A stretch of 64,000 bases of DNA from Candidatus Omnitrophota bacterium (GCA_015231405.1 JADGBR010000005.1:40034-104033), one strand, 5' to 3'. Positions 46,508 to 64,000 are shown, counted from the first letter of the stretch. Notes: generated by a model not told the origin, from the sequence alone. Program-made: numbers and translations.

Positions 46508-49500
46508 CTACGCTCTAGACAGTATCTGGTGCCTGTATATCAGGTAATTCGCGTACATCTCCGTATCCAAGAGTACCGCCGGGGTGTAGAGGTCGAGCCA
46601 GGCGGCGTTCTTCCATTTTTCTCCGTCTTTCGCGGCTGAGGCCCTCATGCCTACGAGGCGGGTCAATAGATCGCCGAAACGGTATACTCCGAGGACATTG
46701 TCGTTCATCACTATGACGGGGACTTTAACCTTGTATGTGAGTTTGGCTTTCGCCCAGTTGATGCCGTTCGCGCGGATAATGCCGAGGATATTCTCGGGTT
46801 TATATTGCGCTTCTCCTCCCTTCCTCGCGGCCGAGTTCAATACCTTTATAAGCGTCTCGACCTCGGTGTTCAGGTCTTTGTACGGATCGTTGTCTATGGC
46901 GGTGAAAAGTTTCGGGTGTTCCCATTTCTTTAACGCGACTATTTCGACGCCCGGAGCGGCGCGGCCGATGATCGCGGCGAGCTTATCGGCTTCGGCTCCT
47001 TTTTCGGCATAGCGTTTTTCGTCGCGGGAGTAGAGGATGATCTTCCCGCCGGAGAGAATGTTCTTCTCTTTAACCATATCGTTTATGGAGTTTTCAAGCT
47101 CGTCAAATCGGACGGCGTTGTCGAGTATATCCTCGGCGTAAATGATGAGCGATCTCGGCGTCCCGGCTTCGAGCCCTGAGGCCAGACCGGCGAGATCCGC
47201 TTCAGCCTCTCCCTGTGTTTTACCCAAATGACCTTCCGCGTAAGAAACGAATCTCGAGGCCCTTTCGTCATACTCCGCCGCGGTCGTCTCCGCCGTTCCC
47301 GCCATGACGCGCGTCACGGCTTTTATCGTCGCCGGGGACTGTTTCTCAATTATTTTTACTATATCCCTGAACCATTCAAACCCGCCGAATACCGGCATAG
47401 CCGCGGCCATAACTTTCGCGGCGGCGTCGATGTACGCGGCCCGCCTGACGATGAGGAGCCGCGCCACTGCGTCCGCAAGCTCCTTCGTGACAACCGGCCC
47501 TTTCTCCCTGGGTTTCATGCTGTCGCGTATACCCTCACGCCTTTTCCTGAGCTCCGCGATCTTCGCGCCATTACCCGCCGAGTCCGGACCGGCGGCGATC
47601 TCTTCTATTTCTCGATCGATAGCGAGGATCTGGTTGTATTTTTCTTTCGCCGCCCGGAGGATTTCCAACTTCTTGTCGATATCCGGTGTTCCATGGGACG
47701 TGGGATATATCCCGTGGGACGTAGGACGTGGGATGTGGGACGTCCTACGTTCCACGGAACCAGGCTCGGGAAATTGCAAACTCTCCACATCGAACAAAAG
47801 CCGCGACACGCTCCCGTCGCCCTCGTTCAGCGCGAAAAGCCTGTCTCCGGAATACCAGAGATGTGACGGTCCGTCGAAACCACCAAGCCCGCGGGGGATG
47901 ATGCCGAGCACCTTACTCTCTTTGAGGTCGTAGACCGTAACCTCGTCCGTATCAAGCCCCGCTATAAACAATTTATTACCAACAACTTCCATCCCGGCCG
48001 GAGCAGCAACGGGAATACTCTCGATCTTCTTTCCGGCCGATCCTGTGAGATATATCCTTGTCACCATATCATTCTGGAGATCTGAGACAAGCAAGCTGAA
48101 GCTTTCCGCATCGAAACAGATCCTGTCGGCGTCACGGAGATCGACCGTTGTTCGTTTTATGAAACCGTTGTGCCAGGAATTATTATTATCGCTCCGAAGG
48201 CTCCCTCCTTTCAAATTCACGACAGTAATGTATGCCCCTTCAGTTATATCGCCTTTGTTGAGGACGTAAAGCCCGTCTCCTCCGATCGCGAGCCCGACCG
48301 GGTTTTTGAACCAATCCTTCCCCGCGCCTATTATCCCATTTATCCCGTTCTCACTGTAATCGGGATCGGGAGCCCAGAAGCCAGGGGCAGCGCTGAGAGA
48401 ATACCGATATACCTTTATCGTATTATCCCCTTTATCGGCAATAAAGAACCTGATATAACCGCTCCCCTGAATAATAGCCATGCCGGCGGGTTCTTTAACA
48501 TGGTTAGGCTCGGGCCAGCCGGTGGCGGTATTACTCCCGTCAAGGTAAAGTACCGTTTCATTCCCGTGGAGGGAGAACCTGGAGATCTCTATCGCTTTTT
48601 TATGATCCGACCCGTGGTCATCCGTTAACACGGCCGTGTAGTTTATATCTCCAACGGTGAAAGGCGCTACACCAAGAGCCGGCTTCCCCTCAGAAACCAC
48701 GGTATCCCTCTGATACCTGGGAACTACCCCGGAAATATTCAATTCTTCAGGTTCCGTATCTATAACCGTCCCTGAACCAGGATTAGAAACGATCACCCGG
48801 GTGCCAAAAGGCATTTCAGCCGCCCTTATGGTATGATATGCCCCGGAAGGAGGTTCCATTTTCCCAAACTTCAGCGCTTTTTCGTCCGTTTTGGACATAG
48901 TCTCATCAAAGGTGTATACCGACCCGTCGCTGTTAAGGACCATGAACCCGACCTGCCCCGGATTGACCGCCACGCTCACGGGATAGTTATTCAGCCACGG
49001 ATCGCCTTGTGATCTGGCGCTTTTCGTTATGGAGAACACTCCATTCCTGGCCAACCTGTAAATACGGTTCTCTGTCGACCCTTTTCCCGCGGAAATAACG
49101 ACCAGGAGCTCTTCGCCTTTTACCGCCATATCCACGATCCGGACTTTATCCTTCCCGACAACCTGCACATCCAATGTGTCCTTTAGCTCTTCCTTGAAAT
49201 CGGATGCCGGAACGAGCCCCATATCCGTTTTAACGATCCTATTGTCATCGCCTGAGATGAAATACAGTCTGCCCCCGTCTTCATCCGGATCATAAATTAT
49301 CCTGTCGAATTTATCGATACCTGGCACCCTCTTGATCTCATAGTCACCCTTTATAAGCTTTATCTTTCTACCTTCAACTATCTTATAGTCCGGCACGGGA
49401 TTATCGTTAAAATAGAATTTGCGGACCAGACCGTCATCCCCGGCGACATACAAGCGCCCGCCATTGTCCATAACTACACCGCGGGGAGAGACGATCCTCT

Positions 49501-52500
49501 TGCCGTCCTCACTTAAGATCACGAACGACCCGTTGTCGCCCATATCGGGGATCAGGTTCCAGTCCCTGCTGTACACCTGTATCTCTTTAGCCTCGCGGTT
49601 CACGACCCAGATGCGGCCTTCGTTGTCGATGGTCATGTCGGAGGGATCGGGTAATCTTGGTAACGTAGGACGTGGGACGTGGGACGTGGGACGTCCTACG
49701 GAACTTAGCGATTTAAGCTGGTCAATGTCGGTGATGTCGAAGAGGGATCTTGAGATGGTACCGTCGGCGGTGTTGCCGGCGAGGAGACGGTTATCGGAGA
49801 GGTCCAGGAATTGGAGGCCGCTAAAACCGCCGGCCGAGGCGGGGATGACGGCGAGGATCTCGCCGCTTAATATATCGATCACGTGAACACTGTCCGATCC
49901 CGTGCTCGCCGCGTACAGCGCCTTATTCTTAACGAAAATATCGTAAGGCTTATCTACGGGATAATGCGTGATCCTTTGGCTCATTTCCACGCCTTCAACA
50001 AGGGATATACGGGTCACTACGTTCTTCGACCGGCTGGAGACGAAAATGCTGTGGCTCTCAGAATCATAGAAAAGCCTGTCCGGATCTTCCATAGCGCCGG
50101 GTATGTCGGTCAACTCAATATGCCCTTTATGCCAGCATCCGGCCGCATCCGCCCAGGTACTCCCGAAATAGTCGATGGCCGATATGAACGGCCGGCCGCC
50201 GGGGTTCTTGTTCAGGAGATACCATCCGGAATTAGTGGTTACCCGGCCATGAACGATGTCGGTTACACCGGCCACTAGTCGATTCCCTCCGGTAATAATA
50301 CCGTTTTTATTCCCGAACCGATCATCCGGCATGAGCACCCCGGAATTCACAACCCACTTGAACACTTTTACCGTATCATCGGCTTTATCGGTTATTAAAA
50401 AAAGATGCAGACCCTGGTCGTTGTCGTAAATAATATCCATACCACCCGGGATACCTACACTATTGAGCGACAATTTAGTCGGTTCAGGCCCTTTCCCGTT
50501 TTCGGGATATAACTCTACCCTACATCCCTCATCCCCGGATCTTTCCTTTAAACACGCCACCCAACGCACAGCACCCGGCGTATCGTTGAATTTCAACCGT
50601 TTCATATCTACCATATCGCCGGTTATGCCTTTGACCGTTTTCCTGTATTTAGGCAGAATTCCAGTTACGCCCGGTACCCCCAGGACTGAACCTATCACCG
50701 CGCCCGGGTCCGAATGAGAGACGACGACCCTCTGTGGTCCGGAGGTCGTATCCAAGAACCTTATGGAACGGGTGCCCTCGAACGTGTCGGACTGGGCGGA
50801 ATAGCCGGGGTCCACGGCGCTGTAATCGTCAGGAACAGTGCTCTTATGGGCCATATCTTTATCGAGGATAAAGACTGACCCGTCCGAATTAAGCACGGCT
50901 AAAAATGCCCCGTTTGGATCGGGAGTTACGCTTAACGGATAGCAATTTGAATTCCACAGGGGATCAGAAAATGTTATCAGCCGCCCGTCTTTCGTCATCT
51001 TACAGAGCATGTTCCTGACCCCGGGCGTCACCCCAGCAACAAGCGCGTACAGGCTGTCACCCATTACGGCCATATCCGCTACTTTAACCCTGCGATCGGG
51101 GCCTGTGCCGTAGAAACGCGCGATGATATCGGTTATGTCATTCAAAAATCCGCCATCGACGGTCATGGCCAAATTTGTCTTCACTATCTTATTGCTGCCG
51201 TTATCGATAAAATATAACTTTCCTCCGTCCTCGTCCGGGTCATAGATGATCCTGTCGGCTTTGGTGATGCCCGGGATCGCGACCCCTTCTATCCAACCCC
51301 TGAATACCCTTACATCTTTTCCGTCAATATTCATTTTTTTAGGTGTTTTGGGATCGGGATCAGTGTGGAGACTGAATTTTTGGACCTTCCCGTCGCTTAC
51401 GGAAACATACAAATACTCTTCGCCGCCGTCTATCACTACGGCGAGGCTGTGCGGTTTAAGGATATGCCTTATCCCCTGGCCGGTCGAGAAGACCACAATC
51501 GTCCCGTCATTGGCGAAACCTTTCGTAGGTTCCCAGTTGCTGTCATAGACATTGATCTCCCATGTATCGTTATTGATGACCCAGATGCGGCCTTTCGAGT
51601 CGACGGTCATGTCGCCGGGGTTCGGCTTTCCGTTGGACGTGGGACGTGGGATGTGGGACGTCCTACGTCCTACGTCCAACGTCCCACGGGACATCGCCGG
51701 CCACTTGATCACCGGCGTTTCAGGCTCATTCTTACAGAAGACACAAAGGCTGCCGTCGCCCGATATGTCCATAGTCACGGGATCGATGAATCCGTCGTCG
51801 GTAATTATGCCGTTCTTACCGAAACGCGTATCGATCCTGCCGAACCTGTCCAGGGCCATAACGCGGTTATCCTGCTTATCCCACAAAAAGATATGGCCCG
51901 TCAGGCGGTTTATCCTTAGGAGTTCGACCTTTCCGAAAGTATCGATCCCGGCATAACGCGCGTCGGCGTGGCCTATACCGTTAAAACCGAAATCCTTATT
52001 CAAGAGGCCGAATTCGTTGAGCGAAAGGACCATCCTGGACTCGCCTGTCTGGTCAAGCCGCCCGAACAGGTAGAAATTGCCGTCAGAATCGACGTCGAAA
52101 GAAGAGACAGCGACGAACCTCGCGCCGAAATGATCCTCGAGATATTTCTTTTCCGCCATGCGTTTTATGAAAGTGCCGTCGGGCGAGAATTTTGATATCA
52201 TGCATGGGTCGGTGTTCTCGGAACGTCTTGTATCGAGTATATAGATGAACCCCTTATCATCCACGGCAAGCGCGTCCGGGCCCTTTATCTCGGGCGAACC
52301 CGGCGCGTCCTTCAAAGGGATCTTATTTAATTTCCCGTTAAGCCCGATCAATATGAGGGCGCCACCCGCATCCAGGACCGCGAGCCCCTTGCCGTCTGGC
52401 AATACCCTTATATCATTAACGCCGAAAATACTTATCGCGCTGAAGTTAAACTCGCTGTCATGGTTAAAAGCCATATTCGGCTCACCGTTGGGCTTTGTAC

Positions 52501-55500
52501 TACGGATAACTGAGCGGCCCCCCGCGCGGGTCTCCACCCAGACTTCGTAAATATTCCCGTCGGCATCGACCGTGCCCGCGGCAAGCACTTCATCGCCTTT
52601 TTTACCGTTCTTGATCGCCTGAGGCACATGTTTGAAAGGTATAACCGGGCGGATATACTCGCGCGGCAATAGCTCGAGGCCGGTGTTTTCGCCGGTCACG
52701 TAGAGGTCGCCTTTTTTGTTGAGGCGTATGCAGTATGGTTTGTCAAAATTGCCGTATATCTTCCCTGATAAACCAAAGTTTTTGTTAACGGTAAGAGTTG
52801 GCGCTATCGGATCGAACACAACTATGTAACCGGCATCGTAAGCCACAAAAATATTCCCTTCATGGTCTACCCCTAAACGGCTGGGGTCCCGGCCGTGAGG
52901 GTTAAGGTCCCATTCGCCGAGCCAGGTTTTGTCACGTGATAACGCCATAAGCTTACCGTTCTCCCCAAGGAGATATATTGTCCCGTCATTCTGTCTGACG
53001 GTTATATCCTTGCACGGGGCCTTTAATATATTTGGTATGTGTGTGCCGGAAGCTATCTCATACTGATCCAGGTGCTTCGGATCTTTAAGGGTATATTTCA
53101 TCGCCCCTTCCTCGTCGATATCCACGGGGAAGCTTTCTTCGTAAAACTTCCCACGTTTGTTATCATAGGCACAGAAAAAATTGGTCAATTCAATGTTCCC
53201 TTTATCGGTGACCACGAAATTCTGCTTTTTCCTGCCCGGGGCATATTCCCGTATCCTTTTCGGCGTAATGGCGGTATCCCTGAGCGCCTTAAGGTCCGGC
53301 GAAGTTTTTTCTCCGGGAGTCAATAACGGCCTCATGCCCATCACGCCGTACGGCACCATGGATATGGTATGGTCGCCGGCGTTGATGACGTAAAGGTCGT
53401 GGAACGGGTCGAAATCGGCGTTCGCGGCGAACCCGGAGGGTTTGTCAAACCCTCCGGCCGACGGAGGGATAACACTGATCCCGGAACCGTCCGTTAAAGC
53501 CAGTGACCCGTTCTCTCCGTTAAGGACGGCTATTCTGCCGTCAGTAAGATATTTAATACTTTTTGGCGCGTTAAATTCCGCGGGATGCGAGTCCCTGTCA
53601 AAATTATCTATGTTAACTTTAAAATATGAACCATTCGCCGAATTGGTTAGATGCAAATGTCTCGTCACCTGATCATACGTAATACCGTCCATCGCGAGGT
53701 TTGGGTCATTGCTCCCTATACACATTATCTGTCCTAATGGAAAATCGTTATATGGGCTGCCGTCACCGTTAAACACATAGATCTGATGGAATTCCAACTC
53801 TTTCTTTTTGCATAGTACGAATATAGCGGGTTTTGTGCCGTCGTTGTCAGCTTTGACCGCGACCCCAAGCGGGATCTCATCATCGGGAAGTGATATTACT
53901 CCGCTCCCGGCGAACCGCGTATCCAGCTTACCGTTCATGTCAAATACCTTAACATCCCCATCGCCGGCATCGGGAACAAAGATATTCATTGTCGCGCCTT
54001 CATCCACAGTATCTATAACAAGGTCGCGCGGATCGATGAACGGGTGGCCATCGTCAGATACCTCTGCGGTCACTTTGAACACGTCACCGTCATGTCCGGC
54101 GCGTTCGAGCCTTTTCAATTTTTTATCGGCGAGATCTATTGTCCAGAGAGCGCCTTTATCGTCCATATCGAGTTTGAACGGTTCCCGGACGCCTTCGAAC
54201 GGTATCTTGAGATACCCCGGGGCGTAGCCTTTGATACTGTAAGTATCGCTATCAACGGCGTAAACAATATTGTCGTCGAAATCAGTAACGAGTATATCCC
54301 CGTTACTGTCCAGGCTAAGCGAGTACAAATTTCTCGGGGAAAGACTGACAGTGCGGATAGGTTTCGCCTGACGGGGGTCGATTACAGTGATACGGTTCAC
54401 CCGTTCCGAATGCTTGTCGGGATCGGGCTGAAAGCTATTCAGGATAAGCAGGTTCATATTTTTATCCAGGATGATATCCATGTGGTTTTCGAAACCCAGG
54501 TTCACGCCTTCCAGTCGCTCGGCAGGCGTAGCTTTCTTTCCGGTATTCTTGTCGAATACCAATATTTCGTTCGAAACTGCCCCAGCCAGGTACAGGTTCC
54601 CGTTCGCGCCGTCCTCCACACAAAAGCTCCAAAGAGAGGAAACCCGTCCAAAATTGCCGTTTCCGGCAGGGCCGTTGAAATCCGGGTCTTTCTGTCCGTC
54701 TTCAGAACACTTTACGACGGACATGAACTCTTCATTCTCATCGTCCTTGACCCTCACGAGCCAGTAAACGCTGCCCATATCGTCCACCGCTATATCCATC
54801 ACTTCTTTCACGTCGAATTTCGGACGGTTTAGTCCCGGCAATATGATATCCTTTTTTTTCGCGCCAGGTTCATATCTAACGCCTTTGTATTCCTCATAAT
54901 AAACTATCAGCCTGTTTTTTCGGTCAAGCGCAAAAGCCTCTATTTTGTGTCTTTCGCCGGCATTACCTTTCGGCATGAACACCCGGCCGTTCGATCCCAT
55001 CGAAGTATTCACGCGCCAGTTCGCGTCATAGACCACGATCTCGTTCCCCGCGCCGTTAAGGACGTAACGGTTGCCGTCGAGTCCGGTCTTCACGCGGCCT
55101 AATCCGGTTAGTCTATATGTATCGTAGGACGTGGGATGTGGGACGTGGGACGTTACACGTCCTTCATCCGACGTCCTACGTCCTACGTCCAACGTCCCAC
55201 GTAACTTCTGACCCTCCGCCCCATGCCCCAACCCCTCAGTCCCCTCCCACGTAAGCTTGACCGCATTATGCGCGTCCCCGTCCGTAAATACCCACAGTTC
55301 GCCTTTAGCCGATATGTACGTATCCTGAACCCGACCGAATTTGGCGTCTTTGATGATGCCGTTCCCGCCGAAACGGGTATCAAGCCGACCGTCCCTTGTA
55401 AGACAGATAAGCCTGTTGTCTTCGACGCGACCGCTCCCGACATTCCCTTCACGATCTATAAGGAACATATGTCCCGTGGCCCGGTTAATGGTCAGTTTAT

Positions 55501-58500
55501 GGACCTCGCCGTAAGTATCCAGCCCGGAGTACCTCGCGTGGGCAAAAGCCCGTTCTTTCCCGCCGAAATCCTTATTTACCCGTCCGAATTCGTCGAACGA
55601 TACGATGATCTTCGGCTGGCCGGTCCACGCTTCACCCATGACAAAAAAGTTCCCGTCGGCGTCAATGTCGAAGACTGAAGCCTGAAAACGCGCGTTCTGA
55701 CCAAGATATCCGTCAAGCTCATTTTTGTCGCAGAAAGCCCTCAAAAATTTCCCGTTGGGCGAGTATTTGTATATCCGATATTCACCCGGCGCACCTGTCC
55801 CTTTTTCAGGGTCCATAACATAAATGAACCCATTACCGTCTATGGCCAACTTGCCCGGTTTTTGTATCTCTTCCGAATGGTCCACGCTCCCGTCAAGCTT
55901 CAGGAATACCAGATGCCCGTTTTCCAGAACTATGAGGTTTTTCCCGTCGGCCGACAATTTGAGATCCAGAATGCCCTCCCGGCCACGCTCGATCTCGCCC
56001 GTGACTCCAAAATCCGTGTTCGGACCTCCGCCAGGCAAAGAGCTTCTAATTATATGCTTCATGGAATCTACATTGTATAAAGAGACATAAATATTCCCGT
56101 CATAGTCGACCGTCCCGCGGGCGAACAATTCTTTATCGTTCTTCCTGCTGTTAAAAGCGGCGGTCGCGTGGACGAAAGGTTTTGCCTGAACGATATATTC
56201 CCGCGGTAACAGCTCAAGGCCTGTCTCTAAACCGGTCACGTACAGATCACCTTTGTTATTAAGCCCGATACAGAACGGCATGTCAAAATCGCCGTATATT
56301 TTTCCGGCGTAGCCGAAACTCTCAAGGAGGACACATACCTTCCCGTCGAGGCTCAGCCCGAACACTCCCACAAAACCCTCTTCGTACGCGGCGAAAACTC
56401 TCCCTTCGCTGTCGACAGCGAGACGGCGTGGCGAGATCCCGTAGTCGTTAAGGTTGAACGTCTCGATCGGCTGGCCGGTATCTGAAAACAGCTCCAGCCT
56501 GCCGTCATTTGACAGTAGGCAGATCTTCCCGTCACGCGGGTCGACAGCCACATCCTTCTGATCGTCTAAAGGAGAAAAATCAGATATCATTATGCCTGTA
56601 TCGGCGTTAAATATCTTCACCTGGTCCAAGGACTCATTTGTAAGAACATAGATCTTCCTCCGCGCCTCGTCTACGGCTATGGCTTTTACCCCTTCCTGAT
56701 GCCCTTGGAGCGACCCGTTTTTATCGGGCCCGAAATCGGCGTCAAGTTCCTGCCCGGAATTGAAAGCCATAACGCTTTTGGAAGCCGGGTGGTACGTGAA
56801 ATACCTTTTATTCTTTCCATCGGCCGCGCAAGGATTAAGTGCGAATATCGTCTGATCCTCGCCCAGAACGGCGAAATATATTTCCTTCGCGGGCGGATCA
56901 AAATCTCTGATCCTTCTCGGCGAAAAAGAGATATCTCTCAAGTCCCTGAGAACGGGATCAGATTTTTCTCCCGGCGTGACGGCAGGGCGCTCGCCCAGCG
57001 ATTCCAAAGGTACCATCGAAATGGTATGGTCGCCGGCGTTGATGACGTAAAGATCGTGAAAACTGTCCCATGAGGAATTCGCGGCTAAACCGGCGGGTTC
57101 ATTAAAAGCTCCGGCTGACGGGGGTATGACGAAATAATCCTTACCGGAATTGTCCTGGAGGACTGCCAAAGAGCCCGTATCTCCGTTAAGGACGGCTGTC
57201 CGCCCTTCACCTATAGCCTTCACGCTGACGGGATTATTGAAATACCCAGGTTTCATTTCCAGGACGTCGCCGTTAAGCGCCATGGCGCTGACCGCACCTG
57301 TGGCCGAGTTGGTTAAGATCAAAGCGTTTCCGTTCCAGGTGATGCTATCCATAGCGAGCGCCGGGTCATTGTCGGCTATTTTTATGACCGAGCCAAGCAA
57401 AATGCTTACCGCCGGTTCGAGCTCACCTTCGATAACACGAACGAAATATTTATCCTTGTCCTTTTCTTTGCATAAGACCATTATCGCAAACCCATTATCC
57501 TTTTTATAGATCGTGACTCCCAGCGGGATCTCTTCTTTCTCTAGAGGGATAACCCCGCTACCTGAGCACCTCGTATCAAGTTCGCCCTTCATGGTATAAA
57601 CTTTAATCGACGGTTTTACCGTGGCGTCTCCCGCGTCCGGGACGAAGATATTCATCGTTTTGCCTCCGTCCAGCGTGTCTATGACGAGATCGCGCGGGTC
57701 GATGAGCGGATGACCCTTGTCATGCGCCACGTTTACGACCTTGAACTTGTCGCCGTCATGTTTCTCCCGAGCCAGTTTCTTCACCTTTTTATCGGCGCGG
57801 TCTATGGTCCAGAGTGCGCCTTCGTGATCCATATCGAGCTTGAATGGTTCCCTAACCCCTTCGAACGGTATCTTGAGATAACCCGGCGCGTAGCCCTTTA
57901 TCCTGAAAGTGCCGCCGTCGGCTACGGTGATAATATCGTTCTTACCTTGCTCGCCGACAAAAAGTATATCGCCGTTCCGGTCCCCGGACATGGTACCGAA
58001 AGACCGGCCGGAAAACCTTGTTTCCGATATTTTTTTCCACGAACTGGTATCAATGACGGTTACCCTCGCGACCCGTTCCGTGCCTGATATTTCTTCGCTA
58101 TCAAGCACGACCAGGTTATTGTTTTGATCATGCATGATGTCCAGCGGGAAATCAAACCCGTAACTCTCGCCATGAACCAAGGTTGTAGCGGCATATTTGC
58201 CGGTGTTCTTATTATATATGCTTATCTGCCGGTCCCCGATCGACGCGAGGATCAGCTTACCTTCCGCGCCGTCCTGAACGCAAAAACTAAATCCAGACCC
58301 GAACGTTTTGATCATCTTGGCATCGGTCGGCCCCACGAAATCTGGATCGAGCCCCCCGTCGACAAACTCCTTCAAAACGACGGCGAATCCGCTGTTTGTC
58401 ACCAAAAGCCAATATATTTTATCCTGGTCATCCGTGGTAATATCTATCACTTTCGACAGCCGTTCCCCGGGTCCAAGAGAGTCGGGTACCGTTATTTCCC

Positions 58501-61500
58501 TATCCACCTCTTTCGCTCCGGAGGCGTATCTTACAACCTTATGTTCCTTATAAGAGACCAAGAGCCTGTTGTGCCGGTCGACGGTGAAAGCCCATATTGC
58601 TCGCCTTTTCCCCGTATCTCCGTCCGACATGAACACCTTTCCGTCCGCGCCGATATTCTTATTTACGCGCCAGTTCTCATCGTAGACCACGATCTCGTTC
58701 GTGGCGCCGTTCAGGACGTAACGGTTGCCGTCAGTGTCGGTCTTGACGCGGCGGATGTCCTTGAGGCGATAGGTATCGTAGGTCGAAGGTGGAAGGTCGA
58801 TGGTGGAAGGCCCCTCTTCCCCCTTTCCTTGCCTGCCCGCCGTAGCCTTGGCGAAGGCGGGACCCTTGACCCCTGACCCTTGCCCCTTAGACATCGCCCT
58901 ATCCACCACGTCCCACGTTATCTCAGTCGTTTTCCAGTCGGAAGTGGCAGCACTGAGGCGGCCTGTATCGTCGATGTCAAGTTTTACCGCCTGGGCCAGT
59001 TTATCATCGTATATCGTTCCGTTCACGCCGAAACGCGTGTCTAAGTAACCGTAGCGGTCGAGGACGGTTATTCCTTCTATAGTGAGAAGGCATATGTGCC
59101 CGGTGCGGCGGTTGACCTTAATATCCTTTATCCCTCCAAATGGGTGGGTATCACTGAAATATGCCGTAATACCCGCGATAATACCCATATTCCCCAGGTC
59201 CTTGTTAAGCTCTCCTCGTTCGTTGAACGCTATTAACACATCCTTAGTCTTTTCTACAATAAAGATATTCCCTTCATCATCGATATCGATAGCATGTATG
59301 TTGGGTCTTACGGGAAGCAATAATCGTTGCGATATCTCATTGAACAGCGTTTTTTCACCTATGTGTCTTATGAACTTCCCTTGAGGGCTGAACTTGCTTA
59401 TCAGGGGGAACTCCGCTCCACCGTTCGTAACATAGATATACCCGAATTTATCGACGGCGATATTCCGCGGCTCGGACATGTAAACGGCCAGATCCTCATC
59501 GAGCGGAACGGACTCTTTGTCCGGATCTTTTTGCCCGTCTAAGGTATAGAAATCTATGCCGGCATCGGTCATAACTATCTTATTCTTCCCATCCGCCGAC
59601 ATGACCGTATTGGGCATAGAGTCGACTGAAGACCTTTGAGCCATCTTGTGAGCGAACTTTTCAGGACGGATATGCGTCCGCGGCAAGATCACCAGGCCGG
59701 CTATGTCTTCAGAGGAAATATACAGATCGCCTTTATCGTTGAAACCGATATCGTAAGGCTTGCCGAAACCGCCCGTTATTACGCCCCCCTTACCATAAGA
59801 TGGATCCGGTTGTTTTGTGTCGGGATCTATGAAGACTATAGCCCCCGAGCCGAATGCTACGGCTATTCTGCCTTCGAGGTCGACAGCCACTGAGACTGGA
59901 TCCGTATGCCCCAGGTTGGGTAAGAAAATCGGTCCGCCCACCGCCGCTTTGGCGTTATACCAGCCTATTCTATCCTCATAGAGATCGTAATACTTGCCCT
60001 CTTTTCCGGAGGCTATATCCCTTATGCCTATGGAGTGCGGGAACCTGCCGATGAACCCACCCGTATCGAGATGGTATCTGTATACCGCGTTGTTCGAGCA
60101 GAGAACATATAATAGTCTTTCACCCTCGTCCACCGTCATGGATAGGGGTTCATGATCAGGTTGTTGAAGTTTGAGAATACCGTCACCATCGGGACCGAAA
60201 GCAGTATCAGGCCGCAAGTCGCTTTTCAGCGCGAATATTTTGCCTTTCTCGTCGGCGACGAAAACGCGGCCGGTCTTCCTGTCCTCGGCCATGCATGATG
60301 GTCTATTGATATCCAGGCTGACGAAATCGGGCGCCGATGTTCCTCGGCCTATGGCTAATTCTAATTTTCCGGAAGGAGCAAAGACCTTCACGACATTACC
60401 GGTTATCGACATGATATGCCCGTCTCGCCGGACGATGAATTTTTCTTTTTTGACCGCACGGTTGTCTTTATCGGCTATCCGTTTCGGGAGGACGCGTTGC
60501 CTTAGTTGCCGGAGTTCGGGGTTGGCCTTCTCTTCCTGAGACATAACAGGCCGTAACTCAGCCGCGCCCAGAGGCACCATATAGACCGCTTTTTCTTCGG
60601 GACTAAGGATGACTAGATCGGGACTCGCCGTACCGCTCCTAGTGCCCGGATATAAGGCTACCCCGCCCGGGACATATTTCCCCGACGGAAGCGGGAAGAT
60701 ACCGTCAGGTAAAGGCCCGTTGTCGCGATGTAATACCATCGATGTTCTATCCCTTCCCAAATAGCACATATGGTCTTCGAAGGGGACCATCCCGATAGGT
60801 TCGTCAAGACGTTCCGGCATAACTGTCCGGAATGGGACACCCGCCCCGGAGTAATTAAACTCTTCCTTTACGGTCCTTATGATCTTCCTCACGGGATCGA
60901 CGAATAAGTTCCCGGGTGCGTCTTTCTTAATATCAAGGCCCGATATCCTGCTCCCGCTGGGAAATGTAAGGTCGGGCTCGCAGTTACTGTTAAGGACCTG
61001 GATATACGGAGCGCCTCCTTCCTCACCAAGACAAAGGACAAATATCCTGTGGTCTACCTCCCCATCCACGGCCACGGAGACTGGGCGTTTAAACCAACCC
61101 ATCCCCTTACCTATAATACCGCCGGGGCCGAACCTGGTTTCCGGTTCACCGTTCATATCGAACACTTTTATATCATTGTCACCCATGTCAGGAACAAAAA
61201 TATTATCGTCAAGGCCGCTGTTGAAAGAGGCGATAACGACATCGGCCGGGTCATTGAAAGAGCCGAACTCTTTAACTACCGTGAATCCAGCGCTGTCATG
61301 CTTTTCCCTTATCAGCTTTTTAACTTTTTTGTCGGACTTATCGATAGTGTAAAGAGCATTATCCCGGTCCATGGCCAGCTTCCACGGTTCTTTTACTCCC
61401 TCTATGGCTATTTTCAAGTACCCCGGGGCATATCCTTTCAAGAGGTGAGTATCGCCGTCAATGACCCATACAATATCGCTACCGTTCTCCGCTATAAGGA

Positions 61501-64000
61501 TATCACCGTCATCGTCGACGCTTATTTTACGGTCCGCACCCGCCTTTATTCTTATACCTATATCACCGAATTTTATCGCCCCGAGATAAGCCCCGCTCGT
61601 ACGGTCGACTATAGTTATGCCCTCCTTCTTCTCTTCACTGCCGAGAAGCAAGAGCCGCCCGTGCTTCTCGAGGGCTATGCCGGTCAAATATCTATGATCG
61701 GCAGCGCCAGGCAGGGACTCATCCCGCGATGCCCTGACTTTATCAAGCGCCTTTACCTCTTCCCCATTAACAATATAGTAGACATTACCATTTTCACCGT
61801 TCTCAACCGTAAAGTCGACGACCCCTTCACCTATATCGCAATAACCTATGCCCAAAAAAGCAAGGTCCCTAAGATCGTCTTTCCCGGTTTTTACTAAATA
61901 ATATCTTTTAGGACCGGACCAATCAGGGGCATAGGCATGTTCAAAAAGATAATATAGGCACCCCTGATCATCCGCCTTCATTTCGATGAGCCCGCCCAAC
62001 GCCACTATGCCCGAGTACATCCCATAGACAGGTATAGTAACCGGTCCGCCTTCGCCTTTACTCCTGTATTTCACCGCTCCAACGTCCTCATAGAATACGA
62101 CAGGGGTGTCATTATTGCTTATAGTTACCGCCTTTATCTTCAGCCTTTCGCCGCTACTCTCGATGAATATCCGCCCGTTCTCGCCTATCGCCGGGTTTAT
62201 TACCCAGTTCTTGTCGTACACGATTATCTCGTTCGCGCCTTTGTTCAGGACGTATTTGTTGCCTTTAGCGTCGCTCTTGACATGGCCTATGTCGGTGATC
62301 CTGTATGTATCGTCCGACGTCCCACGTCCTACGTCCCACGTCCTACGTTCAACGTCTGACGTCCTACGTCCTACGTCCAACGTCCCACGGAAACCAGTTT
62401 GCCCCTTCTCAACTTCCGCCAGATACACCCCGTATTCCACCCCCGCCAACTCTTTGAGCGTCGCCAAATGATCTGCCGCAGCTTCAATGCTTTCCGAACT
62501 CACCGGCTTTGGCCTAGGCGGCAGTACCGGCTCGACCGGTCCGGCCCGTACGGGCTCGACTCGCTTTCTCATCCACTCGACCGGCTCGAGGCGCATCTCC
62601 TGGCGGGCTACTCTGCCATCGGGCATGACGAACGCCATATTCCCCGCTCCGGTGATAAAATCTCCCGCATCGGGGACTCTCCCATTATCCACTTCCAAAT
62701 ATCCGCCTTCGCCTATACCCTCGTCGAGTTTCCCGGTATGGGGATCAACGACCGCCGCCCTTCGCCCGTTTTTATCGAAAAATATCAACCTGTTCATCTC
62801 GCGGTCAAATGCCGCCTGAGCGGCGTTAACGCCGAATTTAGAGTCGCTGAAACTCGCCACCTCATGGGCCCTATTATTTTCAATATCGATATTAGCTAAC
62901 ACATCGACCGCCAGAAGCCCTTCTCCCAAAGGCGAAGTATGCGCGTAAACTACTGAGAGTTCGTCATTTTCGCCGAAAAATATCTTTCTCGCCGAGGTAG
63001 AAACTATCCCTTTCGCGTTTGCCATATTTTTCCAAACCGGCGAATATTTCACCGGCGCCGTCGGCTCGCGCCATATCTCAAATATGCCGTTTTCCAGGAG
63101 TACGAATATCTCGCCCCTTGAATTGACATCCATTGATATCCCTTTACAATTACCTCCGCGGGCCCTGATCGTCCCCTTATCGGCCGTGACGGTATCCAGG
63201 GACCCGTCGGGATTAAAGAAATAAACGATATTCTCGGTGGCCGTGGCGCAAAGGACCAGGATCTTGATACCTGTCCCGGTATCGGGCATTACTGCCATGG
63301 CCTTCACTTCCTGCATGTAAAAATGCACATCCTGAGTCTCCCCTGGAAGCCGGAATGTTACCCTCCCGTCCGGAGCGCCGATAAAGTTACGGACTACGGT
63401 GCCGTCAGTCATTATCTTGTTAATGAAATACAGAGCGGTCCCGGCGACAGGAGGCGCGGCTGACTTTTCGGCGAAATAGATATTTCCTTCATTGTCGGTC
63501 GCTTTGAACGTCGGCTCCAGGTATTGATCTTTGGTAACGGTCACTTCGGGTTTATTGATAAGCGGTATCGTAACCCGGCTTTCGGACGCTTCGTCCGTGA
63601 CTATGAGCCCGCCTTCTTTATCGAATTTTATGTCGATGGGCGTTGTTATGCCGAATTCTTTAAGGTCTATCTCTCCGTCATCCGCGAAATCCGTATCGGA
63701 GGTGCCGTCGGGCCTGTATATGAGAAGGATGTTCTTTTCTTTCGAGGCCAGGAATATCCTTTTAGAATAGAGGTCGACGGCTATCGAGAACTCTGTGCCG
63801 TATTTTCTGTCGATCTTGATCGCACCCATTTTTGATCCCGACGTGCTGAACGGGACCATCCTTTCATTCTTGTCCATCCTGACAAGATACGCGCCGTCGG
63901 CGTTGGAGCACATGACAAGGATATTTTCATTCACATCCAGCGCCATATCTCCGGGCGCGACCAGAGCGAGCTGGCCAAAACTTGCGGCAACGCTTTCTAT
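46508..64000 (-). CDS. giant NHL/beta-propeller-repeat protein, 5'-partial (more than 5830 aa; the ORF stays open to the window edge), built of tandem paralogous modules
   Basis: Uninterrupted minus-strand ORF; the frame remains open upstream of the first Met (…LALVAPGD-MALDV…) through position 64000; repeated ...GxIYVxD.../NHL-like blades; five paralogous modules separated by in-frame hairpin linkers. Confidence 0.85.
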   Translation of the reverse strand: MESVAASFGQLALVAPGDMALDVNENILVMCSNADGAYLVRMDKNERMVPFSTSGSKMGAIKIDRKYGTEFSIAVDLYSKRIFLASKEKNILLIYRPDGTSDTDFADDGEIDLKEFGITTPIDIKFDKEGGLIVTDEASESRVTIPLINKPEVTVTKDQYLEPTFKATDNEGNIYFAEKSAAPPVAGTALYFINKIMTDGTVVRNFIGAPDGRVTFRLPGETQDVHFYMQEVKAMAVMPDTGTGIKILVLCATATENIVYFFNPDGSLDTVTADKGTIRARGGNCKGISMDVNSRGEIFVLLENGIFEIWREPTAPVKYSPVWKNMANAKGIVSTSARKIFFGENDELSVVYAHTSPLGEGLLAVDVLANIDIENNRAHEVASFSDSKFGVNAAQAAFDREMNRLIFFDKNGRRAAVVDPHTGKLDEGIGEGGYLEVDNGRVPDAGDFITGAGNMAFVMPDGRVARQEMRLEPVEWMRKRVEPVRAGPVEPVLPPRPKPVSSESIEAAADHLATLKELAGVEYGVYLAEVEKGQTGFRGTLDVGRRTSDVERRTWDVGRGTSDDTYRITDIGHVKSDAKGNKYVLNKGANEIIVYDKNWVINPAIGENGRIFIESSGERLKIKAVTISNNDTPVVFYEDVGAVKYRSKGEGGPVTIPVYGMYSGIVALGGLIEMKADDQGCLYYLFEHAYAPDWSGPKRYYLVKTGKDDLRDLAFLGIGYCDIGEGVVDFTVENGENGNVYYIVNGEEVKALDKVRASRDESLPGAADHRYLTGIALEKHGRLLLLGSEEKKEGITIVDRTSGAYLGAIKFGDIGIRIKAGADRKISVDDDGDILIAENGSDIVWVIDGDTHLLKGYAPGYLKIAIEGVKEPWKLAMDRDNALYTIDKSDKKVKKLIREKHDSAGFTVVKEFGSFNDPADVVIASFNSGLDDNIFVPDMGDNDIKVFDMNGEPETRFGPGGIIGKGMGWFKRPVSVAVDGEVDHRIFVLCLGEEGGAPYIQVLNSNCEPDLTFPSGSRISGLDIKKDAPGNLFVDPVRKIIRTVKEEFNYSGAGVPFRTVMPERLDEPIGMVPFEDHMCYLGRDRTSMVLHRDNGPLPDGIFPLPSGKYVPGGVALYPGTRSGTASPDLVILSPEEKAVYMVPLGAAELRPVMSQEEKANPELRQLRQRVLPKRIADKDNRAVKKEKFIVRRDGHIMSITGNVVKVFAPSGKLELAIGRGTSAPDFVSLDINRPSCMAEDRKTGRVFVADEKGKIFALKSDLRPDTAFGPDGDGILKLQQPDHEPLSMTVDEGERLLYVLCSNNAVYRYHLDTGGFIGRFPHSIGIRDIASGKEGKYYDLYEDRIGWYNAKAAVGGPIFLPNLGHTDPVSVAVDLEGRIAVAFGSGAIVFIDPDTKQPDPSYGKGGVITGGFGKPYDIGFNDKGDLYISSEDIAGLVILPRTHIRPEKFAHKMAQRSSVDSMPNTVMSADGKNKIVMTDAGIDFYTLDGQKDPDKESVPLDEDLAVYMSEPRNIAVDKFGYIYVTNGGAEFPLISKFSPQGKFIRHIGEKTLFNEISQRLLLPVRPNIHAIDIDDEGNIFIVEKTKDVLIAFNERGELNKDLGNMGIIAGITAYFSDTHPFGGIKDIKVNRRTGHICLLTIEGITVLDRYGYLDTRFGVNGTIYDDKLAQAVKLDIDDTGRLSAATSDWKTTEITWDVVDRAMSKGQGSGVKGPAFAKATAGRQGKGEEGPSTIDLPPSTYDTYRLKDIRRVKTDTDGNRYVLNGATNEIVVYDENWRVNKNIGADGKVFMSDGDTGKRRAIWAFTVDRHNRLLVSYKEHKVVRYASGAKEVDREITVPDSLGPGERLSKVIDITTDDQDKIYWLLVTNSGFAVVLKEFVDGGLDPDFVGPTDAKMIKTFGSGFSFCVQDGAEGKLILASIGDRQISIYNKNTGKYAATTLVHGESYGFDFPLDIMHDQNNNLVVLDSEEISGTERVARVTVIDTSSWKKISETRFSGRSFGTMSGDRNGDILFVGEQGKNDIITVADGGTFRIKGYAPGYLKIPFEGVREPFKLDMDHEGALWTIDRADKKVKKLAREKHDGDKFKVVNVAHDKGHPLIDPRDLVIDTLDGGKTMNIFVPDAGDATVKPSIKVYTMKGELDTRCSGSGVIPLEKEEIPLGVTIYKKDNGFAIMVLCKEKDKDKYFVRVIEGELEPAVSILLGSVIKIADNDPALAMDSITWNGNALILTNSATGAVSAMALNGDVLEMKPGYFNNPVSVKAIGEGRTAVLNGDTGSLAVLQDNSGKDYFVIPPSAGAFNEPAGLAANSSWDSFHDLYVINAGDHTISMVPLESLGERPAVTPGEKSDPVLRDLRDISFSPRRIRDFDPPAKEIYFAVLGEDQTIFALNPCAADGKNKRYFTYHPASKSVMAFNSGQELDADFGPDKNGSLQGHQEGVKAIAVDEARRKIYVLTNESLDQVKIFNADTGIMISDFSPLDDQKDVAVDPRDGKICLLSNDGRLELFSDTGQPIETFNLNDYGISPRRLAVDSEGRVFAAYEEGFVGVFGLSLDGKVCVLLESFGYAGKIYGDFDMPFCIGLNNKGDLYVTGLETGLELLPREYIVQAKPFVHATAAFNSRKNDKELFARGTVDYDGNIYVSLYNVDSMKHIIRSSLPGGGPNTDFGVTGEIERGREGILDLKLSADGKNLIVLENGHLVFLKLDGSVDHSEEIQKPGKLAIDGNGFIYVMDPEKGTGAPGEYRIYKYSPNGKFLRAFCDKNELDGYLGQNARFQASVFDIDADGNFFVMGEAWTGQPKIIVSFDEFGRVNKDFGGKERAFAHARYSGLDTYGEVHKLTINRATGHMFLIDREGNVGSGRVEDNRLICLTRDGRLDTRFGGNGIIKDAKFGRVQDTYISAKGELWVFTDGDAHNAVKLTWEGTEGLGHGAEGQKLRGTLDVGRRTSDEGRVTSHVPHPTSYDTYRLTGLGRVKTGLDGNRYVLNGAGNEIVVYDANWRVNTSMGSNGRVFMPKGNAGERHKIEAFALDRKNRLIVYYEEYKGVRYEPGAKKKDIILPGLNRPKFDVKEVMDIAVDDMGSVYWLVRVKDDENEEFMSVVKCSEDGQKDPDFNGPAGNGNFGRVSSLWSFCVEDGANGNLYLAGAVSNEILVFDKNTGKKATPAERLEGVNLGFENHMDIILDKNMNLLILNSFQPDPDKHSERVNRITVIDPRQAKPIRTVSLSPRNLYSLSLDSNGDILVTDFDDNIVYAVDSDTYSIKGYAPGYLKIPFEGVREPFKLDMDDKGALWTIDLADKKLKRLERAGHDGDVFKVTAEVSDDGHPFIDPRDLVIDTVDEGATMNIFVPDAGDGDVKVFDMNGKLDTRFAGSGVISLPDDEIPLGVAVKADNDGTKPAIFVLCKKKELEFHQIYVFNGDGSPYNDFPLGQIMCIGSNDPNLAMDGITYDQVTRHLHLTNSANGSYFKVNIDNFDRDSHPAEFNAPKSIKYLTDGRIAVLNGENGSLALTDGSGISVIPPSAGGFDKPSGFAANADFDPFHDLYVINAGDHTISMVPYGVMGMRPLLTPGEKTSPDLKALRDTAITPKRIREYAPGRKKQNFVVTDKGNIELTNFFCAYDNKRGKFYEESFPVDIDEEGAMKYTLKDPKHLDQYEIASGTHIPNILKAPCKDITVRQNDGTIYLLGENGKLMALSRDKTWLGEWDLNPHGRDPSRLGVDHEGNIFVAYDAGYIVVFDPIAPTLTVNKNFGLSGKIYGNFDKPYCIRLNKKGDLYVTGENTGLELLPREYIRPVIPFKHVPQAIKNGKKGDEVLAAGTVDADGNIYEVWVETRAGGRSVIRSTKPNGEPNMAFNHDSEFNFSAISIFGVNDIRVLPDGKGLAVLDAGGALILIGLNGKLNKIPLKDAPGSPEIKGPDALAVDDKGFIYILDTRRSENTDPCMISKFSPDGTFIKRMAEKKYLEDHFGARFVAVSSFDVDSDGNFYLFGRLDQTGESRMVLSLNEFGLLNKDFGFNGIGHADARYAGIDTFGKVELLRINRLTGHIFLWDKQDNRVMALDRFGRIDTRFGKNGIITDDGFIDPVTMDISGDGSLCVFCKNEPETPVIKWPAMSRGTLDVGRRTSHIPRPTSNGKPNPGDMTVDSKGRIWVINNDTWEINVYDSNWEPTKGFANDGTIVVFSTGQGIRHILKPHSLAVVIDGGEEYLYVSVSDGKVQKFSLHTDPDPKTPKKMNIDGKDVRVFRGWIEGVAIPGITKADRIIYDPDEDGGKLYFIDNGSNKIVKTNLAMTVDGGFLNDITDIIARFYGTGPDRRVKVADMAVMGDSLYALVAGVTPGVRNMLCKMTKDGRLITFSDPLWNSNCYPLSVTPDPNGAFLAVLNSDGSVFILDKDMAHKSTVPDDYSAVDPGYSAQSDTFEGTRSIRFLDTTSGPQRVVVSHSDPGAVIGSVLGVPGVTGILPKYRKTVKGITGDMVDMKRLKFNDTPGAVRWVACLKERSGDEGCRVELYPENGKGPEPTKLSLNSVGIPGGMDIIYDNDQGLHLFLITDKADDTVKVFKWVVNSGVLMPDDRFGNKNGIITGGNRLVAGVTDIVHGRVTTNSGWYLLNKNPGGRPFISAIDYFGSTWADAAGCWHKGHIELTDIPGAMEDPDRLFYDSESHSIFVSSRSKNVVTRISLVEGVEMSQRITHYPVDKPYDIFVKNKALYAASTGSDSVHVIDILSGEILAVIPASAGGFSGLQFLDLSDNRLLAGNTADGTISRSLFDITDIDQLKSLSSVGRPTSHVPRPTLPRLPDPSDMTIDNEGRIWVVNREAKEIQVYSRDWNLIPDMGDNGSFVILSEDGKRIVSPRGVVMDNGGRLYVAGDDGLVRKFYFNDNPVPDYKIVEGRKIKLIKGDYEIKRVPGIDKFDRIIYDPDEDGGRLYFISGDDNRIVKTDMGLVPASDFKEELKDTLDVQVVGKDKVRIVDMAVKGEELLVVISAGKGSTENRIYRLARNGVFSITKSARSQGDPWLNNYPVSVAVNPGQVGFMVLNSDGSVYTFDETMSKTDEKALKFGKMEPPSGAYHTIRAAEMPFGTRVIVSNPGSGTVIDTEPEELNISGVVPRYQRDTVVSEGKPALGVAPFTVGDINYTAVLTDDHGSDHKKAIEISRFSLHGNETVLYLDGSNTATGWPEPNHVKEPAGMAIIQGSGYIRFFIADKGDNTIKVYRYSLSAAPGFWAPDPDYSENGINGIIGAGKDWFKNPVGLAIGGDGLYVLNKGDITEGAYITVVNLKGGSLRSDNNNSWHNGFIKRTTVDLRDADRICFDAESFSLLVSDLQNDMVTRIYLTGSAGKKIESIPVAAPAGMEVVGNKLFIAGLDTDEVTVYDLKESKVLGIIPRGLGGFDGPSHLWYSGDRLFALNEGDGSVSRLLFDVESLQFPEPGSVERRTSHIPRPTSHGIYPTSHGTPDIDKKLEILRAAKEKYNQILAIDREIEEIAAGPDSAGNGAKIAELRKRREGIRDSMKPREKGPVVTKELADAVARLLIVRRAAYIDAAAKVMAAAMPVFGGFEWFRDIVKIIEKQSPATIKAVTRVMAGTAETTAAEYDERASRFVSYAEGHLGKTQGEAEADLAGLASGLEAGTPRSLIIYAEDILDNAVRFDELENSINDMVKEKNILSGGKIILYSRDEKRYAEKGAEADKLAAIIGRAAPGVEIVALKKWEHPKLFTAIDNDPYKDLNTEVETLIKVLNSAARKGGEAQYKPENILGIIRANGINWAKAKLTYKVKVPVIVMNDNVLGVYRFGDLLTRLVGMRASAAKDGEKWKNAAWLDLYTPAVLLDTEMYANYLIYRHQILSRA
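47690..47758. repeat. family B hairpin repeat in frame within the giant gene (linker VERRTSHIPRPTSHGIYPTSHGT)
   Basis: ccatgggacgtgggatatatcccgtgggacgtaggacgtgggatgtgggacgtcctacgttccacgg. Confidence 0.8.
49662..49702. repeat. family B hairpin repeat in frame within the giant gene (linker SSVGRPTSHVPRPT)
   Basis: aacgtaggacgtgggacgtgggacgtgggacgtcctacgg, a near-perfect 10-bp stem. Confidence 0.8.
51631..51690. repeat. family B hairpin repeat in frame within the giant gene (linker GTLDVGRRTSHIPRPTSNG)
   Basis: cgttggacgtgggacgtgggatgtgggacgtcctacgtcctacgtccaacgtcccacggg. Confidence 0.8.
55122..55206. repeat. family B hairpin repeat in frame within the giant gene (linker GTLDVGRRTSDEGRVTSHVPHPTS)
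   Basis: atcgtaggacgtgggatgtgggacgtgggacgttacacgtccttcatccgacgtcctacgtcctacgtccaacgtcccacgtaac. Confidence 0.8.
58775..58870. repeat. degenerate module-junction linker (direct repeats ggtggaagg / gacccttgacccctgaccc) at the position where other junctions carry the family B hairpin
   Basis: atcgtaggtcgaaggtggaaggtcgatggtggaagg ... gacccttgacccctgacccttgcccc encodes ...GQGSGVKGPAFAKATAGRQGKGEEGPSTIDLPPSTYDTYRL. Confidence 0.5.
62311..62390. repeat. family B hairpin repeat read in frame within the giant gene (module linker ...GTLDVGRRTSDVERRTWDVGRGTSDD...)
   Basis: cgtccgacgtcccacgtcctacgtcccacgtcctacgttcaacgtctgacgtcctacgtcctacgtccaacgtcccacgg. Confidence 0.8.

Follow-up and report, generated by a model that had tools for sequence, protein, structure and literature searches.

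The terminal part of a 64,000-nucleotide (nt) stretch of Candidatus Omnitrophota DNA (GCA_015231405.1 JADGBR010000005.1:40034-104033; hereafter the window) is occupied on the minus strand by a single giant open reading frame (ORF), ORF B, which codes for a repetitive protein of the NHL/beta-propeller type. Translation of window positions 46508-64000 gives 5,831 codons with a sole stop, the last codon, in agreement with the first-pass annotation of this DNA, which had claimed a frame of more than 17.4 kb still open at position 64000. A stop-free frame of 17.5 kb at a GC content of 51% cannot be chance. The earliest in-frame ATG, at 63946, lies within a blade-like motif (..LALVAPGDMALDVNENILVMCS..) and has a GGAG just 2 nt upstream, and no in-frame stop precedes it up to position 64000. 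The position of this ATG in the middle of a blade and the closeness of the GGAG argue that ORF B is probably cut by the window, as had been proposed, and most likely extends upstream past its edge. The Prs protein encoded in the window has 74% identity to its counterpart in an Omnitrophota metagenome-assembled genome, Omnitrophota supply the majority of the 80 best loci, and two proteins with the C-terminal domain of ORF B (P0002 and P0004) come from Omnitrophota; judged by these similarities, the host of ORF B is Candidatus Omnitrophota. This phylum context, a C-terminal domain that defines a family, and heptamer arrays at every module junction are all absent from the first-pass annotation.

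Self-comparison of ORF B by BLASTP in chunks of 300 amino acids (aa), together with an alignment of the long modules, divides it into an N-terminal part (N-part), three long modules (M1 to M3), two short modules (S1 and S2), and a unique C-terminal part ending in a conserved domain (Table 1; residue i corresponds to window position 64000-3(i-1)). This recovers the earlier partition into 3 + 2 modules followed by a distinct C-terminal part of about 395 aa, and the motifs then quoted are present, GYAPGYLKI(A/P)(I/F)EGV(K/R)EP(W/F)KL.MD in the long-module alignment and DMT(V/I)D..GRIWV(I/V)N in the translation. The module sizes given with it, about 1150 and 640 aa, are slight underestimates of the measured 1,172-1,223 and 663-668 aa. 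A non-NHL segment, GYAPGYLKIPFEGVREPFKLDMD, is strongly conserved in every long module. Between the N-part and the C-terminal third of the long-module profile there is a weak but collinear alignment. It gives a weak hint that the N-part could be the end of another long module that has diverged more, since similarity between blades can align in many registers.

Table 1. Features of the window, in order of position
Feature	Position	Strand	Remarks
Giant ORF A, complete	376-23106	-	7,576 aa; Peptidase_M23, alpha-amylase, CheB methylesterase, weak Fe-ADH match
IS66-family transposase ORF	23593-24603	+	Sole sizeable plus-strand gene; adjoins ORF A start; low-GC patch 22001-24000 (GC 0.44)
SpoVG homologue	37121-37825	-	234 aa; zinc-ribbon insert (residues 57-79) in SpoVG domain; long C-terminal extension
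Split transketolase (region 38939-43618)	C-terminal half 38939-39907; N-terminal half 42782-43618	-	Separate genes
Small basic ORF	45228-45320	-	30 codons; strong AGGAGG ribosome-binding site; peptide MPCGRKRKVKKVKRHKRKKRMRRDRHKKNK; between hisG and TPR gene
Heptamer hairpin after ORF B stop	46447-46499	-	Begins 9 nt past stop; GGACGTN/CCCACGT family; -37 kcal/mol, z -8.2; no T-tract
ORF B	46508-64000	-	5,830 codons + stop TAG at 46508-46510; frame open at window edge
C-terminal part, unique	46511-47695	-	aa 5436-5830, 395 aa
Conserved C-terminal alpha/beta domain	46511-47245	-	Last 245 aa of ORF B
Helical region between last propeller module and C-terminal domain	47246-47695	-	aa 5436-5585; conserved only in closest relatives P0002 and P0004
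Short module S2	47696-49699	-	aa 4768-5435, 668 aa; top Pfam NHL score (39.8 bits)
Junction S2/C	47712-47757	-	Two-arm heptamer hairpin; -33 kcal/mol, z -5.1; translated ERRTSHIPRPTSHG
Junction S1/S2	49663-49694	-	Short heptamer hairpin; z -5.25; translated VGRPTSHVPRPT
Short module S1	49700-51688	-	aa 4105-4767, 663 aa
Junction M3/S1	51631-51688	-	Two-arm heptamer hairpin; -35.5 kcal/mol, z -4.5; translated RGTLDVGRRTSHIPRPTS
Long module M3	51689-55204	-	aa 2933-4104, 1,172 aa; at least 9 blades
Junction M2/M3	55123-55202	-	Two-arm hairpin, GGACGTN x5 then CCCACGT-type; -47 kcal/mol, z -5.8; translated RGTLDVGRRTSDEGRVTSHVPHPTS
Long module M2	55205-58873	-	aa 1710-2932, 1,223 aa; at least 9 blades
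Junction M1/M2	58776-58888	-	Two in-frame arrays of other units, AAGGGTC... and CCTTCGA/CCTTCCA (gene strand); z -0.39
Long module M1	58874-62431	-	aa 524-1709, 1,186 aa; at least 8 NHL-like blades
Junction N/M1	62311-62389	-	11 tandem GGACGTN, one orientation only; z -3.35; translated GTLDVGRRTSDVERRTWDVGRGTSD
N-part	62432-64000	-	aa 1-523, 523 aa; blade-like repeats

The assignment of the modules to NHL/beta-propellers, also made in the first-pass annotation, is supported at the level of sequence. When ORF B is scanned in seven pieces, the Pfam NHL family (PF01436, cut-off of 20 bits) is above its gathering score in four of them, M1 (29.7 bits), M2 (23.3), M3 (25.5), and S2; it falls under the cut-off in S1 (16.1 bits) and has no match in the N-part. 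NHL is the sole family above cut-off, the other Pfam matches being to beta-propeller families, all under their own cut-offs, and NCBIfam gives only sub-threshold matches of the NHL type. The profile of M1-M3 matches solved NHL propellers at several module positions, among them TRIM71 (1e-9), TRIM3, TRIM2, Thin, and the sensor domain of PknD (6e-7). A blade hidden Markov model (HMM) iterated on ORF B finds 38 blades, three in the N-part, 8, 9, and 9 in M1 to M3, three in S1, six in S2, and none in the C-terminal part, these counts per module (8-9 in the long, 3-6 in the short) being lower bounds. By this count, dozens of blades sit in diverged super-modules of 665-1,220 aa.

The modules are only distantly related to one another. 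In the full alignment, M2 and M3 are 48% identical in protein sequence, and M1 and M3 36%; local BLAST segments range from 27% to 53% identity among the long modules and from 28% to 43% between S1 and S2, and the best short patches of DNA between M2 and M3 reach 67-74% identity. With identities of 27-53% in protein and at most 74% in nucleotides, the duplications are, on this measure, old rather than recent as had been assumed, and the concern that the locus might be a collapsed repeat of the assembly can be set aside.

The boundaries between these modules are marked in the DNA. Tandem Repeats Finder detects six period-7 arrays in ORF B, which correspond to the six module junctions (Table 1; at S2/C the array itself spans 47713-47743); no other period-7 array is found in ORF B, nor any inverted repeat away from the junctions. 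Five of the junctions are built of GGACGTN and/or CCCACGT-type units, and in four of these both kinds pair as the arms of a hairpin, with folding energies of -19 to -47 kcal/mol and z scores of -4.5 to -5.8; z scores of -3.4 to -5.8 are reached at five of the six junctions. A block of 32-33 nt is identical at three junctions, in direct orientation. The junction arrays are 91-100% identical to each other at the nucleotide level, versus at most 74% for the flanking coding DNA, which argues that something acts on the arrays as nucleic acid, be it constraint, gene conversion, or recent regeneration.

The arrays share their reading frame at the junctions and, according to the translation, are read through as linkers of 20-35 aa rich in Arg, Thr, Ser, and Pro, with the heptad-periodic sequences RGTLDVGRRTS... 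and ...(I/V)P(R/H)PTS. The consensus unit GGACGTA-G contains a TAG, and because 7 mod 3 = 1, three or more consensus units give a TAG in every frame. Among the GGACGTN units of ORF B, TAG is present in seven of the nine that are out of frame and in none of the seven that are in frame, which have TTG, TCG, TCA, or TGG instead. This frame-specific loss of TAG indicates that translation through the arrays is under selection, that the arrays are tuned for read-through, and that the copies within the ORF are not accidental.

Separate translation starts after the junction hairpins are ruled out: a conserved Met opens S1 and S2, 24-30 nt past the hairpin, and no Shine-Dalgarno was found before it in the sequence; in the long modules the hairpin is followed by no start codon, and the first blade opens the module directly. 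The junction hairpins are not canonical intrinsic terminators either, as they lack a T-tract and are not among the terminator-like sites of the window. A scan with Rfam returns tRNA-Gln only.

Hairpins of the same construction follow other genes. Six strong intergenic inverted repeats occur in the window (27586-27645, 31334-31470, 35502-35579, 37869-37982, 45352-45415, and 46447-46499). All six begin 0-10 nt past a stop codon (of bamA, rplI, glmU, ispE, hisG, and ORF B), and none has a T-tract. Five of them consist of tandem heptamers that belong to three or more unit families (AGAATCC, GTTGCCC/GTTGTCA, and GGACGTN), and the one of bamA is a plain inverted repeat. The hairpin found after the stop of ORF B recurs in the same GGACGTN/CCCACGT type 8 nt beyond the stop of hisG, for which a promoter-like site lies at 46390-46362, after the ORF B hairpin. 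The post-stop hairpins look like a phylum-specific gene-end element.

A set of 74 heptamer arrays is found in 1.2 Mb of other Omnitrophota DNA; 62 of them are intergenic by crude ORF calling and two lie deep inside long open frames. A crude test of the link of these arrays to gene 3' ends has no discrimination, the spacers being too short. Inverted pairs of heptamer arrays with other units are found in other Omnitrophota (L039 2819-2923 and 5931-6009; L035 3673-3770 and 12353-12403; L060 9893-9983; L064 5140-5215; L034 11709-11798). On an unrelated metagenome contig (L085 1588-1650), GGACGTA heptamers lie past the stop of another gene whose product ends in the C-terminal domain, and several further arrays are present there. 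A relative whose C-terminal domain is 78-84% identical to that of ORF B has a different repeat past its stop codon. Taken together with the GGACGTA units of L085, this different repeat indicates that the repeat families turn over quickly, unlike the old modules. A toxin-like RHS/YD-repeat ORF of 1,854 aa with dockerin-like and YVTN-like parts (L045 3116-8680 and 9398-9428) has an in-frame heptamer array, CTAGTAT..., at 7484-7514, and the array is found again downstream of the gene. This ORF does not count as a second example of in-frame arrays, one of its two arrays being plain YD-repeat coding sequence.

The domain at the C-terminus of ORF B has the motifs SLI(I/L)YA(D/E)DIL, GGKI(I/V)LY, ILGIIR, and VPVIVMN, and the terminal ..YR.QIL..A, and it has no match in Pfam, NCBIfam, or the sequences of the PDB. 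A word-indexed search with the C-terminal part finds one short fragment, 78% identical, and a profile search four matches only. An exhaustive HMMER search finds the domain in 52 other proteins (E down to 1.7e-37), and in 52 out of 52 it is at the extreme C-terminus. The lengths of these proteins include 4,056, 6,951, 5,903, 4,189, 4,828, 3,400, and 3,595 aa, and several are short and probably fragments; P0002 and P0004, the two matches with source names, are NCBI proteins of Omnitrophota. The unit conserved throughout is the last ~235 aa, with the motifs SLILYADDIL, GGKIVLY, ILAIIRG, P..I.N, G.FSFA.A, and W..L.PI, and with ends of the type ..YR..LTKA or ..LQALVAA (pattern Y..YR..L..A). On these matches, the domain defines a previously unannotated family. 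A scan of metagenomes with seven family sequences gives 11 short loci, of which only L088 has a long ORF.

Upstream of this tail the members of the family are unrelated. One can identify AAA_5 with VWA; an M50 peptidase with a ClpB-like AAA and NHL; eight HTH_3; a uridine kinase with NMN adenylyltransferase and radical SAM; and a methyltransferase. P0014 is a stand-alone protein of 803 aa with NHL and the C-terminal domain. A hydrophobic N-terminal leader is common to the full-length members P0009, P0024, P0027, P0028, P0038, P0040, P0052, and P0053; it reads ..(I/L)(I/L)FK..CIAL..ALL.N(D/E)(V/I)SFA.., followed by SCLA(V/I)PNFF.PPC or ALAP.(A/P)GTQ. A conserved head and tail around a variable cargo suggest that the tail could be a common docking, assembly, or sorting module.

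A single-sequence AlphaFold2 model of the 395-aa tail is unusable (pLDDT 51); rerun with the family alignment, AlphaFold2 gives an alpha/beta model of the C-terminal domain with a pLDDT of 86.9 and a pTM of 0.88. Foldseek with this model returns nothing significant and does not recover HAD proteins. Membership of the HAD superfamily is not supported by sequence, as DxDx(T/V), its motif I, is replaced by YA(D/E)DIL (YADDIL in the consensus, YAEDIL in ORF B), and no HAD family is among the Pfam matches of 41 family members at E<=1; in these three respects the domain differs from HAD phosphatases such as MDP-1 (PDB 1u7o). Given the absence of DxDx(T/V) and the negative Foldseek result, the modelled domain is called Rossmann-like, without a close solved relative, and not a member of the HAD superfamily.

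Taken as a gene, ORF B appears to fit a known class of Omnitrophota NHL tandem-repeat scaffolds, with no major difference. A catalogue of 916 long proteins of the phylum (10.64898/2026.06.07.730766, Nielsen & Lui 2026) has a "tandem-repeat scaffold" class that includes NHL, with up to 37 copies, and in which nucleotide repeats have dissolved and domain repeats persist. ORF B shares with this class the phylum, a very long ORF in whose visible part NHL is the one Pfam family above cut-off, and repeats that are old at the nucleotide level. It differs in that at least 5,830 aa are visible, whereas the catalogue starts at a threshold of 10,000 aa, and in that no transmembrane or signal segment is seen in the visible part, which excludes the N-terminus; 94% of the catalogued proteins have a signal peptide or transmembrane helix. 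The in-frame junction hairpins and the shared C-terminal domain are not mentioned in that work. Archaeovorins and dockerin-type giant proteins have also been described in Omnitrophota (10.1101/2023.11.21.568195, West-Roberts et al. 2023). The tail of ORF B is common to large and giant proteins with an Archaeovorin-like mix of AAA_5, VWA, kinase, methyltransferase, and radical-SAM domains, and a second, Archaeovorin-like giant gene, ORF A, lies in the same window. However, ORF B is not tiled with enzyme domains, having beta-propeller repeat families only, and downstream of ORF B are hisG, the 30-aa basic ORF, and a TPR protein, not pilZ. The six-bladed NHL propellers of TRIM71, TRIM2/3, Brat/Thin, and PknD are matched by the module profile, with E values of 1e-9 to 6e-7, and share PF01436 above its gathering score; unlike them, ORF B has its blades by the dozen, in super-modules of which the long ones hold a conserved non-NHL segment.

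The arrays themselves recall two kinds of repeats. The Rickettsia palindromic elements (RPE), reportedly described by Ogata et al. in Science in 2000, are short palindromic repeats that occur in spacers and also, in frame, inside a protein-coding gene, where they are translated as an extra peptide segment. Here too, GGACGTN/CCCACGT hairpins lie past the stops of hisG and ORF B and, free of stops, at five junctions. In contrast to RPE, the element of ORF B consists of tandem heptamers, is in frame only at the paralogous-module boundaries of one gene, and has intergenic copies tied to stops. Tandem 7-nt units abundant in intergenic DNA are the other case, as in the cyanobacterial STRR heptanucleotide repeats, which Mazel et al. 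are said to have reported in 1990. Beggiatoaceae have heptanucleotide repeats of the unit TAACTGA (PMC4679880). Both belong to other phyla and have other units, whereas here the heptamers occur as inverted pairs, form hairpins right past stops, and are translated in ORF B. Junction-type hairpins are not mentioned in the Omnitrophota literature searched, and the combination of inverted heptamer pairs, stop-proximal placement, and in-frame use at every paralogue boundary is not described in the literature searched.

The reading that we favour, with a probability of roughly three in four, is that ORF B represents at least 17.5 kb from the 3' end of a genuine Omnitrophota giant NHL gene with a scaffold product, and that its arrays are members of a tolerated repeat family. 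The product would most likely belong to the giant-protein class of Omnitrophota as a binding scaffold of multiple propellers, exported or membrane-tethered, in which the C-terminal domain would act as the docking, assembly, or sorting module shared by the family. The junction arrays would most likely be copies of a genome-wide, fast-turnover repeat family, tolerated only in linkers and kept uniform in DNA. As direct repeats 2-3.6 kb apart, they would allow unequal recombination to duplicate or delete exactly one module, and whole modules were probably gained and lost through breaks in them, a process that may still go on. Such recombination would explain why the arrays coincide with the module boundaries and are absent at other domain boundaries within the modules. 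The stable mRNA hairpins may also pause transcription or translation between modules. A broader proposal, which we put forward tentatively as a possibility, is that the hairpins are a punctuation of giant-gene building: an element that ordinarily closes a gene past its stop would be retained in frame and free of stops between the units of the ORF, with growth by fusion of hairpin-delimited units or by unequal recombination between hairpins. They could still be recombination hot spots, 7-nt slippage (frameshift) switches, or RNA pause or processing sites. In a remoter extension, the R-R-x-S motifs of the linkers (RRTS) and a likeness of the C-terminal domain to HAD/FCP phosphatases might point to phospho-regulated linkers.

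Several observations weigh against the favoured reading. The visible 5,830 aa of ORF B contain no hydrophobic 19-mer, which makes a cytoplasmic location possible. Function is read from the fold class only: homologues of the modules in other genomes, which the first-pass annotation had hoped to compare, are not detected by a word-indexed search with M3, scans of genome and metagenome collections find no relatives of the N-part, and the searches yield no close relative that covers the junctions. The junctions are also uneven, that of M1/M2 being made of other heptamer units that fold no more stably than shuffles and that of N/M1 having an array with a single arm. In-frame heptamer arrays do not generalise, as there are none in ORF A (by inverted-repeat search) or in L088.

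The first-pass annotation proposed instead a candidate surface adhesin, attachment organelle, or effector, with modules from recent tandem duplication at a locus that was likely fast-evolving. Repetitive NHL propellers are typical binding scaffolds, 94% of Omnitrophota giant proteins are predicted to be membrane-anchored or secreted (10.64898/2026.06.07.730766), and an attachment role has been proposed for them (10.1101/2023.11.21.568195); copy number could plausibly change through the identical direct arrays at three junctions. This account is nevertheless rather doubtful, since the modules are old, the visible protein has no export signal or transmembrane segment and no Pfam match at E<=0.1, in any of the seven pieces, to adhesin-type domains (RTX nonapeptide, Ig-like, cadherin), and the relatives of its C-terminal domain carry domains of cytoplasmic type (HTH, AAA+, kinases). 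A different history would make ORF B a fusion relic or polyprotein, in which once-separate tandem paralogues lost their stops and spacers, the gene-end hairpins persist as in-frame fossils, and the mRNA or protein may still be cut. This would agree with the in-ORF arrays being of the element kind found past the stops of bamA, rplI, glmU, ispE, hisG, and ORF B, with their strict confinement to the 3' ends of the paralogous units, other domain boundaries having none, and with the distance from hairpin to Met in S1 and S2, which is like the 14-44 nt between hairpin and start in real genes of the window. P0014, with NHL and the C-terminal domain, exists as a stand-alone protein, and unrelated enzyme domains are strung together in many giant proteins of Omnitrophota, an outcome expected of fusion. 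Yet the Met of the short modules lacks a Shine-Dalgarno and the long modules lack a start codon, and the arrays are far more alike than the modules, hence of later date, or homogenised, and not fossils as old as the modules; moreover, the relative with a 78-84% identical C-terminal domain already has another repeat past its stop. On balance, such an origin is on the unlikely side.

The hairpins could also be functional RNA punctuation that pauses the ribosome or RNA polymerase, or recruits a double-strand-specific RNase, and so aids co-translational folding or sets the stoichiometry of truncated products. Four junctions (z of -4.5 to -5.8) are more stable than shuffles, with structures of -33 to -47 kcal/mol among them, all synonymous positions are kept in the identical 32-33 nt, and the filling of one junction by another heptamer family suggests that position and repeat type matter more than sequence. 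But the uneven M1/M2 and N/M1 junctions do not share this stability or its two arms, ribosomes would be stranded on transcripts that end early and lack a stop codon, and ORF A manages without such hairpins, all of which makes a dedicated RNA role improbable. Finally, ORF B might be an artefact, either a chimera assembled across shared repeats of 30-60 nt or a pseudogene in decay; the 32-33-nt arrays that are identical at several junctions and in spacers nearby could confuse a short-read assembly graph. This is very hard to credit when six joins share strand and frame, the paralogous modules are in collinear order and too diverged for assembly collapse, TAG is avoided specifically in the coding frame, and 17.5 kb pass without a stop.

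Omnitrophota giant genes are among the longest known. A giant NHL repeat protein in this phylum is unsurprising, and the junction hairpins are the part of most interest. A repeat element normally located at gene ends falls exactly on the boundaries between the old paralogous modules, and the avoidance of in-frame TAG, a signature of read-through selection, provides a handle on the assembly and remodelling of giant genes. The new C-terminal domain ties the NHL scaffold to large multi-enzyme proteins of Omnitrophota and could serve that class for sorting, docking, or assembly. If recombination is at work, copy-number breakpoints should fall in the arrays; if the hairpins are RNA sites, RNA ends or pauses should be located at them; and if the arrays are read through, peptides spanning the linkers should be detectable.

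Elsewhere in the window, where the GC skew is steadily negative, the core genes lie on the minus strand in the order lpxI, fabZ, lpxC, skp, bamA, dnaB, rplI, rpsR, ssb, rpsF, pth, rplY, prs, glmU, followed by tRNA-Gln, spoVG, ispE, the split transketolase, the FtsH-like protease, the TPR protein, and hisG. Giant ORF A shows no similarity to ORF B by BLAST and does not carry the C-terminal domain (no match in the HMM search, hhalign probability of 1.2%). It has a cluster of hydrophobic segments around aa 2837-3316, and the hydrophobic leader at its N-terminus (MMKKLIVKIISSIVLVTFVAEDIVWADPG) is similar to those of the C-terminal-domain family. Between the two halves of the transketolase there is a gene for an FtsH-like AAA + M41 protease and an ORF of 338 aa without family match. 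The small basic ORF has no match in Pfam, and its very basic peptide may resemble very small basic ribosomal proteins.

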